Assembly: GCA_964016885.1 (NCBI GenBank)
Contig: OZ024743.1
Coordinates: forward strand, 263,376,001 to 263,440,000
DNA from: Eledone cirrhosa
Lineage: Eukaryota
Reading direction: 5' to 3'
Length of the DNA stretch: 64,000 nt
The notes below the pieces were generated by a model. That model was not told the DNA's origin. It was given only the letters and a program-made list of their open reading frames with translations, and did not search any database. The position numbers were made by a program, and so were the translations under genes. This document shows positions 14,686-64,000 of the stretch, piece by piece. The first letter of the stretch is position 1; each line of letters begins with the position of its first letter.

Positions 14686-15105
14686 ATATCAACTAGAAAT
14701 TGATTGTCATATATATATATTTAAAATAAACACATGAAACAATCACAGGGGATAATTTGTAAAGTGTGTAATCACACACAGCTAGGTAGGTAACTAATTA
14801 AAGTTTAACCAGAGCTTGAAATATTACCTTTTAAAAAAATGATTAATCCTCCTTGTATATATTTAATTAAAGAAATATATTTCACCATTAATCATTAATC
14901 ATATTTCTTTAATGAAATATATACAAGGAGGATTAATCAATTTTTAAAGGTAATATTTGAAGCTCTAGTTAAACTTTAATTAGTTACCTACCTAGCTATG
15001 TGTGATTACACAGTTTACAAGTTATCCCCTATGATTGTTTCATGTGTTTATTTTAAATATATATATATATATATATATATATGTCAATCAATTTCTAGTT
15101 GATAT
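14686..15105. repeat. Fold-back palindrome with ~195-bp diverged arms and a 22-nt spacer, next to (TA)n
   Basis: 14686-14878 is the reverse complement of 14901-15105, e.g. agctaggtaggtaactaattaaagtttaac / gttaaactttaattagttacctacctagct. Confidence 0.95.
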
Positions 15106-15660
15106 ATATATATACATATATACATTTATATATGTATTTATACGCACACACGCAGCCCCCACCTATATATATTAATGAAACTAGCCAGGTAAGGCCACAT
15201 TTTTCAGACTCAAGTTGTACTGTATATTTATATTATCATATATATTTATCAACTATTGTTATACATTATTAAATATTATCATACACCTGCGACAATGTTA
15301 TCGAGTTAAACGTTTCTAGCGCTTTGTAAGTTAGTTGAATGCTTATATATCCTACGTGTTTGTATTTATCGTTATTGTGGTTATAAACTATGTCTCTTAC
15401 ATTTGGTAGTTTTATTCATGGTGTCACACTTTCTTAATTTTGTGTTTAATCTGGAGGAAAATGTATAAAATTATTTTCGTTACATTGAGTGCTTTATAAC
15501 TGCCTCAAACAATTCGATTGGTATCTGCACTACTGCGACTACAACTTTGATTTATACCTATGTATATTATACCTCTGTACATTATACTTTATATATATAT
15601 ATATATATATATATATATATATATATATATATATATATATATATATATATATATATATAT

Positions 15661-16352
15661 AGTAGAATAATCGAGTATCGAAAAATCGGCGCACGAGTTC
15701 ACGATAAACAAAATTCGATATGAGTGGCAGAGGGCTCCATAATTTAGATAAATCAGAGCTATAACTATCGTTAAAATACCGTCACACATAGAACAAGTCT
15801 ATAATCAACCGTACGATCGAAAAGTTGCGATCTGGAAGATTCGGGACACTCAGATAAAAAATCAATAAATCAATAAATCAAATGAATGTAAAAAGCATAC
15901 CCGGACCCGCTAGAAAGATGTTAAATCTAGCTTCTTGGGTTTCTGTAAATCCTTAAATTGTTCTCTATCAGCTCACATAAAAATATATAAGACTTCTAGA
16001 TACCAGTGGACAGGAAATTTACTTCTTCAACGAGCTTTGTCCAAACGAATGAAAAGGCATAACCCAAGCTAAATACGCACATGGAATTCGGCTAGGGAGA
16101 TAACCTCTATATCCGCGAAAAATATTCGGGAAAATGTGGAAATACACATATCGAATAAGAGTGCTGAATAGACATGTTAAAATAAACAGGAGCTATTCAT
16201 CATTTAATAGAATCGACAAAAAATGAACAATAAAATTAACTGGTCAATAGCTAGGTCTAGAGCTAAAAATAGTAGAATAATCGAGTATCGAAAAATCGGC
16301 GCACGAGTTCACGATAAACAAAATTCGATATGAGCGGCAGAGGGCTCCATAA
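15661..16352. mobile_element. Terminally redundant non-coding element (82-bp direct repeats 610 bp apart) abutting (TA)n
   Basis: 15661-15742 equals 16271-16352 with one mismatch. Confidence 0.8.
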
Positions 16353-17889
16353 ATATTTCATCTAGCGGATGTTTAACCCGAGATAGGTTGTGCTGAGAGC
16401 GGAAGTGTATATGAGCTGACTGGATTTTGCGCAATTGACGGTAATAAGGGAACCAACTCAAGTTAAACTGATACTGGGGAAAAAATGTTCGTTTGAGTTC
16501 ATTCCGGGTAAGATTTATCCTGGGTTTTTGTAGTTATGTAACATATTTCACAGCGTAGGGGCAGCGAATAAAAAATGAGCTTTGCCAGTCGATTTTTTCT
16601 ATTTGCTTTATACAAATGAGCATCTCCAACAAATGTTCATCAAGCACAATCTATATAAACTCTAGTCTATTTTCATATCCCTCCAGGTTGAAGGGAAGTC
16701 ACTGATGAAATATTAACAGCACTGTCTAGCATTTTTTATTATTACTGACACTGTGATGTGATCAAAATGAAAAATGTGTTTTTCATTACGAAAAACATGT
16801 TTCTTTGCTTTGATAGCGAGGCTACCAATGTGTTATTCTTATATAAGCATATAGTATATACATTCATATACACACCTAATATCATTAAACTCTGTTTTAG
16901 TGCTACTGCCAATTAAATCTCCCCCATCTCTCTCCCTCTCTCTCCCTATCTCTCTTCCCCTATCTATCCCCCTCTCTCTATATACATACATATATATATA
17001 TATATATATATATATATATATATATATATATATATATATATATATATGTGTGTGTGTGTGTGTGTGTATGAACATATATTTATGTTCATATATATATATA
17101 TGTATATATACACGTGTGCGTGTATATATATATATATATATATATATATATATATATATATATATATATATATATATATATATATGCGTGAGCTTTTTTT
17201 CATATATTCGTATGTAACACTTCCGACAGAATCTCCCCTTCACCAACTTATCATCTTCTGTGACAAGTAGAGCGTTTCCTTAAAACTGATGGGAGATAAT
17301 TCTTTGTCGAAAAATATTAACAAACAATATTTTAAAACTAATACAAATAACTACACATTTAAAAGAAATAAAAAAAATCCTTCGCCTCCCAAAGAAAAAC
17401 CCACAATAACATTAAAAAACCCTCAAACAAAACCAAAACAAAGACAAACAAACAATCCTAACAAAAATAAGAAACTTTGCCATCGATCTTTTTACAATAT
17501 AACGTTGAAATACTTGTACAATGATGGAAAAAGCAGATTAAATTGTCAAAATCTGAGTAAAATGAATATTTCATTGTAGTAAGGGGAGACGAGAGGATAG
17601 ATGCCAGAGTCGATAGAATGACTGACATTCAGCCGAAAGGTAGATACGCGAAGTCTTATTAATGGTGGCTGTGGTTGTGCTTGTGGTTAAGACACTTAAA
17701 TCTCAACGGATAAATCCACCTAGCTAAATGTTGCTGTTGTAGATGTTGCCGTTATTGTTCTTATCAAGTAGACATATGTTCAAAACAGTTTCAGCTGTGA
17801 CAATGATGACTCAACACTTCAACCGCCCCGGCATTGTGTGTCTAGAACAGTGATTCCTAGCCACTCATTTTCTAAAGTCTAAAGGTCTC

Positions 17890-18150
17890 CCACGACAGGA
17901 GGCTCATTAGGCCGGTACTTACCCCGATTTTCTTGGCGTTAAGCGACTATGAGTACAACACCCTTTCGTAGACAAGACGCCAATTCAATGCAGTGTTAAA
18001 CTCTCAGCTACAGCTGGTACTCTTTTTCAGCAACGTTAAATGAAGCCTTTTTGCTTAAGACACAACACAGAAACTGACCCAGGAATCAAACCCACGATAT
18101 TATGATCGTATATCCACCACCCTAATCACTAGGGCAAGCCCCTTCAGCCA
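17890..18150 (-). mobile_element. Degenerate tRNA-derived SINE, second (CORE-like) family
   Basis: Reverse complement has a tRNA-like head followed by tgtgttgtgtcttaagcaaaaag; related to 44250-44470. Confidence 0.55.
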
Positions 18151-18414
18151 TATTAGGAGTGACATAATTCAGAAAGAATGGTGATTATAAAATATTTTAC
18201 TTCTAAAACTATTTGATAAAATATAACGTGTTCTTAGATATATAATACAATATGCTTATAGGAGGCCAAACGGCAATAACACATTAAAAAAACCAATGCC
18301 CCCCTCCCCTCCAAGTAAATAAATAAATAAAACAAAATATGAAACAGAATCAAGTATACATACGAACATAGAAAAATTCCACATACAAGGTATATCCTCC
18401 TCTTTTACCCGTAC

Positions 18415-62059: not shown

Positions 62060-62550
62060 GCCAACCTACATAAGCCTTTTTATTTGTAAACTTTCTACTC
62101 CAACCATAATTTTCAGTAGCACCACTCCACATTAATTCCTCAATTTAAGAATGACCTGTAGTATCTATTTCATACTATTAACCTTATTTGAAAATATATC
62201 TGACCAAGAATGCCTTTTTGTGAAAATCAGTCATGTGGAACTATTGTCATCTTGCCTGATGGTTTGAACCTTACAGAACCTCCTGCATCTTTGAGGTCAA
62301 ATACCACCTACTACCATCTACAAACTGACCAATGAGAATCAAAACTATTCCTGCCGACATCAAATTATTCCTAACAAGCTCATATGTCCCAAGGCTCTGA
62401 TACCATCAACACTATACACACAGAGCTGGCATATCTAAGAACTGACTAACTGTCTGATGAGGTCATAGCCATTCAATGGCTATCATCGAAATATATATAG
62501 CAGTAAATAAAGGATTATGAGTTCATGCAATTGACTTATGTTTCGTCACT
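62060..62550 (+). mobile_element. Degenerate Penelope-like 3' end (GIY-YIG remnant, HHR, AATAAA) ending at (TA)n
   Basis: CENQSCGTIVILPDGLNL resembles the L.T..P.GLN terminus of PLE endonucleases; an HHR lies about 190 nt downstream. Confidence 0.6.
62449..62504 (+). ncRNA. Hammerhead ribozyme motif
   Basis: actgt-CTGATGA-ggtcatagccat tca atggctatcatc-GAAA-TATATA-TA-gcagt. Confidence 0.87.
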
Positions 62551-62928
62551 ATATATATATATATATGTTATGGAATACTGTTAGCTTATCGCTAAAACAA
62601 TTTCTATACCTTTCATTTATATATATATATATATAAAAACAAATAACGAAACGAAATTAAATTTCGTTTCGTTTGTAACTCACTTTTGTATGACTGACGC
62701 TTAAACAATTAAGTTAAAAATGTACATCTACATATGCATACTGAAATACTAGTGTGTATATGAATACACACACGTATACATATGCAGATGTAACAAGTCT
62801 TTCACTGGTTGCTTTACTGTGAGCAACCCAGCTATTCTGTATGTAAACACACAGACAAACCGGTTTTTAGAGTCATACTGGTTTTCGAGGAAACACCTTC
62901 CCTCTATTCTCCAGAAAGCCAGACAAGG

Positions 62929-62973
62929 AATATTGAACTAGTTTCGTTGTTGTTACAACTCATCAGCAATATT
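62929..62973 (-). ncRNA. Intact minimal hammerhead ribozyme
   Basis: Minus strand: aatattg-CTGATGA-GTTGT aaca ACAAC-GAAA-CTAG-TT-caatatt. Confidence 0.93.
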
Positions 62974-63784
62974 TACCTATCTACCGGCCTTTCTGGAGAA
63001 TTGTAAAAGCACATATCGTTATATGCTTTTTCTATGAAAATTAGTAGTGGGCAGACTAATTTGCATAGAGTGTGAGTACGCACCGGTTCAGCGGAGACGA
63101 TAAAAACAAATAACGAAACGAAATTAAATTTCGTTTCGTTTGTAACTCACTTTTGTATGACTGACGCTTAAACAATTAAGTTAAAAATGTACATCTACAT
63201 ATGCATACTGAAATACTAGTGTGTATATGAATACACACACGTATACATATGCAGATGTAACAAGTCTTTCACTGGTTGCTTTACTGTGAGCAACCCAGCT
63301 ATTCTGTATGTAAACACACAGACAAACCGGTTTTTAGAGTCATACTGGTTTTCGAGGAAACACCTTGTCTGGCTTTCAGGAGAATAGAGGGAAGGTGTTT
63401 CCTCGAAAACCAGTATGACTCTAAAAACCGGTTTGTCTGTGTGTTTACATACATAATAGCTGGGTTGCTCACAGTAAAGCAACCAGTGAAAGACTTGTTA
63501 CATCTGCATATGTATACGTGTGTGTATTCATATACACACTAGTATTTCAGTATGCATATGTAGATGTACATTTTTAACTTAATTGTTTAAGCGTCAGTCA
63601 TACAAAAGTGAGTTACAAACGAAACGAAATTTAATTTCGTTTCGTTATTTGTTTTTATCGTCTCCGCTGAACCGGTGCGTACTCACACTCTATGCAAATT
63701 AGTCTGCCCACTACTAATTTTCATAGAAAAAGCATATAACGATATGTGCTTTTACAATTCTCCAGAAAAGCCGGTAGATAGGTA

Positions 63785-63829
63785 AATATTGCTGATGAGT
63801 TGTAACAACAACGAAACTAGTTCAATATT
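63785..63829 (+). ncRNA. Intact minimal hammerhead ribozyme, mirror copy
   Basis: aatattg-CTGATGA-GTTGT aaca ACAAC-GAAA-CTAG-TT-caatatt; predicted cleavage after 63822. Confidence 0.93.
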
Positions 63830-64000
63830 CCTTGTCTGGCTTTCTGGAGAATAGAGGGAAGGTGTTTCCTCGAAAACCAGTATGACTCTAAAAACCGGTT
63901 TGTCTGTGTGTTTACATACAGAATAGCTGGGTTGCTCACAGTAAAGCAACCAGTGAAAGACTTGTTACATCTGCATATGTATACGTGTGTGTATTCATAT

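Follow-up and report, generated by a model that had tools for sequence, protein, structure and literature searches.

Endonuclease-bearing Penelope-like elements (EN+ PLEs) occur as partial tandems with an adjacent inverted, 5'-truncated copy, a one-sided tail and a bias toward (TA)n targets (PMC8557442, PMC3846280). In vitro, both target strands are cut and extended by the anole PLE Poseidon PAc, and reverse transcription (RT) of its RNA begins at two adjacent internal sites whose spacing equals the tail (Frangieh et al. 2024, PMC11167929). In the main texts of these three papers the origin of the inverted pseudo-long terminal repeats (pLTRs) and of the one-sided tail is a standing question. 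Here eight fold-back elements in a 64-kb stretch of the 3.0-Gb Eledone cirrhosa assembly (G000:C4:263376001-263440000, hereafter the window) were compared with their relatives across the genome. The results suggest that such elements probably arise by twin target-primed RT of PLE- or retrozyme-like RNAs into (TA)n, with the 3' ends of the two cDNAs joined by microhomology.

The elements themselves are real and of a known kind. Head-to-head architecture, junction palindromes, a one-sided tail and TA targeting have been published for EN+ PLEs together with a self-priming proposal, and a pLTR hammerhead ribozyme and microsatellite targets are further shared features (PMC8557442, PMC3846280). The tails described there are 30–40 nt long, whereas those found here are 56–105 nt. 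The main texts of the same papers treat the tail as optional and derive it from endonuclease resolution, while here tails are paired by rule in 93/96 loci. They also ascribe the inversion to self-priming, which in its simple form is excluded at 19/46 loci in this genome. Poseidon PAc shares the two start sites separated by the tail length, two-strand extension, AT-rich targets and a dispensable ribozyme. According to its main text start-site use does not differ between strands, in contrast to the different site per strand implied by the genomic rule found here, and no explanation of the inverted copy was found there (PMC11167929).

Two other systems are comparable. Retrozymes of the non-long terminal repeat type (non-LTR) are non-coding tandem monomers with a type I hammerhead, as are three of the present families (422–534 nt), and minimal hammerhead motifs on opposite strands 100–700 bp apart have been noted before (bioRxiv 10.64898/2026.07.22.740005; PMC4209133). 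The elements described here differ, as far as those texts go, in inserting with PLE-type tails and inverted arms; the likeness is one of sequence. In L1 twin priming the same RNA serves as template for another cDNA that is primed at the second nick, the joint shows microhomology, and an extra G derives from the cap, but the second primer anneals at varying internal positions and there is no overlap between the segments (PMC11702581). Here both starts are fixed, and the overlapping arms form a palindrome. Neither the one-tail pairing statistic, the non-nesting argument, PLE twin priming nor a cap-like G at PLE junctions was found in searches of the main texts of open-access papers. Thousands of young events in this genome discriminate between the models. 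They favor paired priming at two known start sites over self-priming as a general route, and they hint that the pLTR start is capped and that cleaved RNA is used to a limited extent in vivo.

Families, coding parent and reality of the elements

Self-comparison of the window (~36% GC, rich in (TA)n) recovered all eight fold-backs that a first-pass annotation had listed, at or near the same coordinates. Every one abuts (TA)n or a TA/CA tract, in agreement with that annotation. They belong to seven families: A (62633), B (35813 and 60174), C (55074), D (55217), E (36354), F (23923) and G (14686). The starts given earlier mostly mark the palindromic core, and the tailed arm extends 56–105 nt beyond it (for example to 14581, 23830 and 54992). 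Genome searches gave each family hundreds to thousands of candidate places (200–2406 per query, of which 40 were scored).

Families A, B and E are non-coding tandem monomers of 467, 422 and ~534 nt, each with a type I hammerhead, and are therefore retrozyme-like. Copies of C and D are single units, unlike the tandem monomers by which non-LTR retrozymes are defined. Family D corresponds to the final 216 nt of an autonomous PLE's pLTR. RVT_1 (28.3–30 bits, around the 29.6 cut-off) and GIY-YIG lie in that order in a single 771–775-aa open reading frame (ORF) of this parent, as in EN+ PLEs; this RT with C-terminal GIY-YIG, the hallmark of EN+ PLEs, was found for D alone. A CX4CX2C linker, a trait ascribed to Neptune and Nematis, precedes GIY-YIG. 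Pfam detected no RNase H domain in the ORF. A second, Asn/Gln-rich ORF of 409 aa (parent at L335:993-4444) has no Pfam match and overlaps the RT ORF in another frame, a difference from the EN+ PLEs of the main texts of PMC8557442 and PMC3846280. All 40 scored matches to a 251-nt piece of the parent's ORF are 100% identical, indicating that the parent is young. The pLTR forms partial tandems, with the D end directly before the next unit in 9/20 loci and also in L335–L337, and the adjacent inverted 5'-truncated copy and one-sided tail typical of EN+ PLEs are present.

An ORF scan of the fetched loci of A, B, C, E, F and G, which was not a targeted search for coding parents, revealed no linked ORF; these non-coding families may rely on PLE enzymes acting in trans. 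A search for an upstream progenitor of C gave 13 matches, none of which was one. Identity as miniature inverted-repeat or other DNA transposons was rejected on account of the asymmetric ends, the varying centres, the common single-armed copies and the derivation of D from an RT element. The eight fold-backs are PLE/retrozyme-type elements inserted head-to-head in (TA)n, in agreement with the first-pass annotation. Family B monomers also build long satellite-like arrays at G000:C28:45.63–45.68 Mb (L223–L229). A sister subfamily of A (L458–L487; 1439 pattern matches) repeats every 466 nt, has C at residue 17 and arms of up to 12 units, and shares both outer ends with A.

Palindromes in an assembly may be long-read fold-back chimaeras or products of rearrangement after insertion. 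Two facts are in keeping with this: the window's own family A joint is not among the joints listed from four read runs, and small deletions occur at centres. The same runs, compared with element A, yielded ten other head-to-head joints, nine in Logan contigs (library type unrecorded) and one supported by 5 raw Illumina reads with 3 different starts. One arm lies at 222–241 in five of the ten. Furthermore, arms differ by 0.75–4.7%, their ends are unequal and family-specific, and unique sequence flanks both sides. An artefact or later rearrangement is thus highly improbable.

Outer ends, arm pairing and the route of insertion

The outer ends of the arms are fixed at two sites per family: +229/234 and +303 in A, +219 and +275 in B, ~+178 and +258 in E, and 155 and 216 in D. 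Where both ends lie at fixed sites, 93 of 96 two-armed loci possess one tailed and one tail-less arm (A 20/21, B 15/16, E 11/11, D 47/48); this count leaves out 11 A/B/E loci with an arm ending elsewhere and 5 edge-cut loci. All eight window elements and 14/14 further A loci show the same pairing. The latter were entered by hand; L466, L497 and L505 were omitted for having three parts or an arm with another end point, as were single-armed, edge-cut and repeated loci. The tail of 60–80 nt on one arm, reported in the first-pass annotation for several elements, is clearly the strongest rule in the data. Single-armed copies end at either fixed site.

The two arms of a locus share their variants. 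At polymorphic sites the arms of A agree in 104/106 cases, compared with 61 expected by random pairing, and those of D agree in 43/45 and 39/40.

The arms are often not nested. In 19 of 46 A/B/E loci, including the window A element, neither arm lies within the other in any register. Because a copy cannot outreach its template, simple fold-back is excluded at these loci, and the earlier suggestion that a single cDNA folds back and self-primes fails as a general route. The short arm begins upstream of the tailed arm in 9/45 D loci and 7/15 C loci. In perfect D palindromes the centre base points to the short arm in 12 cases and to the tailed arm in 10. The arms of A overlap by 1 nt or more at the junction in 21/29 loci, and the window A junction has CCTT microhomology at 63363–63366. 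Tailed arms of A start near the inner site (225–255) in 7/42 cases (p=0.02).

Twin priming on one RNA is favored by combining the two-strand cutting and two start sites of Frangieh 2024 with the one-tail, concordance and non-nesting rules. Each nicked target strand would prime one cDNA on the same RNA, one strand starting at the outer (tail) site and the other at the inner site. By analogy with the anole PLE, the two outer ends would be the RT start sites. The second RT would displace the first cDNA on the shared RNA, and each cDNA would stop independently, usually at random and slightly above chance at or after the hammerhead cut. In the short elements D and F the commonest stop would be the capped RNA start. 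The two cDNAs would then be joined at their 3' ends, likely through microhomology. Tailed A arms that halt near the inner site fit a collision on one RNA. It is possible, and we put it forward more tentatively, that Penelope-type integration always requires two primers on a single RNA, with each start site used once by one of the nicked strands and the first cDNA displaced by the second RT. Single-armed copies, inverted pLTRs and the one-sided tail would then be outcomes of this one reaction, and arm ends would map in vivo RNA 5' ends, mainly the capped pLTR start and to a minor extent the ribozyme-cut end.

Several observations weigh against twin priming on one RNA. The sampled loci are best-scoring matches and so non-random, and query edges inflate hot spots. 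The tail rule has 3/96 exceptions, plus L173 and L302 in C. Concordance is weak in the older families (B 50/71 versus 43.5 expected, E 14/19 versus 11.8), and it could reflect two RNAs of one source locus or later gene conversion. Nested arms, found in 27/46 A/B/E loci, are also compatible with fold-back. In L123 and L128 the mirror sequence continues for 5–7 nt beyond the D start, suggesting either that the template was palindromic or that the cDNA briefly snapped back. In some D loci one arm stops near the cut and the other reaches the start; this needs cleavage between passes, or two RNAs.

The last point raises the alternative that two target-primed cDNAs are made on two RNAs of one source locus, held in an asymmetric RT dimer that forces one cDNA to start at the outer and the other at the inner site. 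For the anole PLE, dimerization is predicted in the main text of PMC11167929. Two RNAs would account for the one-tail rule, the non-nested arms and the concordance, would make strand displacement unnecessary, and would explain loci with one arm at the cut and the other at the start. On the other hand, the two RNAs must nearly always share a locus although several haplotypes are active in A and D, and tailed arms halting at the inner site (the 7/42 arms above and the five read-derived joints at 222–241) are not predicted. We regard two RNAs as unlikely.

Hammerhead cut and predicted RNA start

Type I hammerheads are predicted in six of the seven families (A, B, D, E, F and G). The first-pass annotation expected one in every element or family, and family C departs from this with a degenerate 3' half: its CUGANGA 5' core was not found, and U16.1 is present in just 2/49 arms. 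A strict descriptor gave 8 matches in the window compared with a mean of 0.27 in 30 shuffles. Among them are the minimal hammerhead of A at 63792–63822 (+), with a predicted cut at 63822^63823 and a mirror copy at 62966–62936 (−), the type I hammerhead of F at 24019–23975 (−, C3 to residue 17) and that of D at 55396–55425 (+), with a predicted cut at 55425^55426 and a mirror copy at 55327–55298 (−). The D motif is a U3-A8 core variant of a kind previously described (Cervera and de la Pena 2014, PMC4209133) and is unchanged in 117/121 matches. An initial reading of D as lacking a hammerhead was dropped once this variant was allowed in the descriptor. A looser descriptor adds the minimal hammerhead of B at 36032–36062 (+; predicted cut 36062^36063) and those of E at 36746–36814 (+) and 36596–36530 (−). 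Stem III is palindromic in the minimal motifs of A and B. Rfam HH9 matched A only, at 38.6 bits, under the gathering score of 52; Rfam microRNA matches in the window were rejected as hairpin or microsatellite noise. Family G, put forward only tentatively before, has a complete hammerhead in at least 19/25 fetched loci (by eye), the core lying upstream of the extent of the window copy.

The first-pass annotation proposed that the ribozyme-cut RNA end, or its stem II, determines where a single cDNA folds back and self-primes. A/B/E loci were mapped onto their monomers and de-duplicated to 118 elements, and exposure was corrected for the query. Arm 5' ends fall within −3..+40 of the predicted cut in 26/172 cases, a modest enrichment (hazard ratio 1.56, p=0.028), and nine fall within −3..+12 (hazard ratio 1.48, p=0.17); most start elsewhere. 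Of the 64 two-armed A/B/E loci, 44 lack any arm start near the cut, while a single arm starts there in 18 and both arms in 2, so the ribozyme does not fix the centre. Twelve of the 64 are near-symmetric, and two of these, both of family A, turn at an unrelated hairpin at +262. In the further A loci 3/28 arm starts are near the cut. For D, exact junctions at the modal start are estimated at ~835 (928 x 27/30). The estimate for the cut is ~116 (205 x 17/30), an enrichment of ~4x over the ~29 (72 x 12/30) of a single control position. The hazard counts have flaws: stops at the cut are undercounted, as L018, with a start at ~+1, was placed at 452 and L237/L245 were treated as one, and L086/L089/L090 are probably duplicates of one event. 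A junction-pattern test at the A cut (1439 matches) was void, as the sister subfamily has C at residue 17 and the control comprised mostly substitutions.

Within the window 2/8 turn points lie near the cut, at 60463 (arms at ~+1 and +10 to +17) and 63363 (+8 and +37), the two cases that the first-pass annotation had placed at or beside it. Those of G and of the short arm of F lie in the hammerhead body, and those of D and of the tailed arm of F at or near the predicted RNA start. The elements at 35813 and 36354 turn 75–185 nt upstream of the cut; for the latter a turn shortly 5' of stem I (36676–36712) had been proposed. The turn of C is a hard 5' end. Stem II does not serve as a landmark for turning. 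The "stem II" proposed at 55133 is the palindrome itself, and the GAAA placed at 55362 is in fact at 55416.

The cut is a minor preferred stop and not a rule, and the turning point is set weakly by the ribozyme. Ribozyme-directed fold-back draws on the two window cases, the excess of starts after the cut in A/B/E and D, the variants common to both arms, and the near-symmetric loci, of which L240 turns at the cut. It is refuted as a general rule by the 146/172 arm ends elsewhere, the scarcity of loci with both arms near the cut (2/64) and the 19/46 non-nested loci. A single-unit template without a tail offers none to be copied, yet the D centres orient 12:10. It is also opposed by the D mode, which precedes the cut by 71 nt, by the hairpin turns at +262 and by the absence of a hammerhead core in C, and according to the main text of PMC11167929 ribozyme mutants left insertion in vitro unchanged. 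We consider this mechanism very improbable.

The modal centre of D precedes stem I by 38 nt and the cut by 71 nt, and the parent pLTR has a TATA-like box ~30 nt upstream of the D start. At this start 928 matches have a non-natural base before the predicted A+1, and 27/30 inspected were true junctions; at the control position there were 72 matches and 12/30 true junctions. Where the natural C is replaced, G occurs in 47 of the first 100 matches listed versus 9/72 at the control. Arms of F begin at an initiator-like TCACT, a motif named in a pLTR by Arkhipova 2013 (PMC3846280), with G in 34/46 non-natural junctions. Base tallies for D and F were counted by hand. An extra G is a sign of a copied cap in L1 (PMC11702581). 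Together these features suggest a capped transcription start at the site where D and F arms pile up. The case is less clear for F, since there is no clear TATA box and about half of its extra Gs may derive from the partner arm, but some are surrounded by TA sequence alone. The sequence ATCAGATG was rejected as the natural 5' end of D. Because the parent reads ACCAGATG, the ATC in D palindromes is mirror sequence. At some D junctions (L383, L385–L387, L372, L118) the first 10–25 nt of the RNA start are repeated, which suggests abortive re-initiation or template jumps.

An alternative, at least in the fixed-centre families C and D, is that an antisense or palindromic read-through transcript self-primes, or that whole palindromes are copied from palindromic masters. 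Self-priming on read-through was already proposed in the main text of Arkhipova 2013 (PMC3846280). The modal perfect palindromes of C and D (22/30 in D, query-biased) and the short mirror overhangs of L123 and L128 agree with such templates. They predict nested arms, however, and the extra G at the sense start indicates a sense capped template. D would need at least six masters (three haplotypes, two orientations), and centres vary in A, B and E. This alternative is improbable.

Layout of the window insertions and neighbouring sequence

The family G insertion (14581..15103) has a tailed arm on the minus strand, with its tail at 14581–14685, and a short plus-strand arm from 14900; the predicted cut is 14923^14924 and this copy is without a catalytic core. 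In the F insertion (23830..24170) the tailed minus arm has a full hammerhead and runs from the predicted RNA start (~24094) with an extra G, and the short plus arm runs from ~24103, in the 3' strand of stem II. The B element at 35813..36335 has a short minus arm with an internal jump (218>144, 373>315) and a tailed plus arm (331>275). It is followed by the E element (36354..37066), with a short minus and a tailed plus arm. The C element (54992..55191; tailed arm minus, short arm plus) has its symmetric centre at 55133. In the D element (55217..55569; short arm minus, tailed arm plus) the arms start 5 and 10 nt past the predicted transcription start. The element at 60174..60697 is a relative of B (~80% identical) without a ribozyme, its tailed minus arm starting from +10 to +17 and its short plus arm from ~+1. 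The A element (62633..64000) has a tailed minus arm from +37 through one unit to +303 and a short plus arm from +8 through one unit to +229, which ends 52 nt past the window edge. Successive insertions collect in TA tracts, as B and E stand back to back (36335–36354) and likewise C and D (55191–55217).

Related sequences occur elsewhere in the window. A diverged D-like end (69%) with a degenerate U3-A8 core lies beside (TA)n at 13472–13594. Another hammerhead-bearing 3' end adjoins (CA)n rather than (TA)n at 23576–23663 (core at 23595), 29589–29627 and 46525–46612. Type I hammerhead-like motifs beyond the eight elements were found at 62454–62499 and 57036–57085. Other inverted repeats lie at 45324–45638, 10993–11057, 22121–22242/23046–23171 and 32097–32325/41213–41442, the last a pair of 231 nt, 86% alike and 9 kb apart. 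A 37-bp satellite of 139 copies with strong G skew occupies 2344–7476. A long interspersed nuclear element (LINE) with Exo_endo_phos and RVT_1 ORFs lies at 48924–54295 (−); the LINE region includes a 966-nt tandem duplication at 48924–50842, and a diverged LINE piece is present at 34359–34986.

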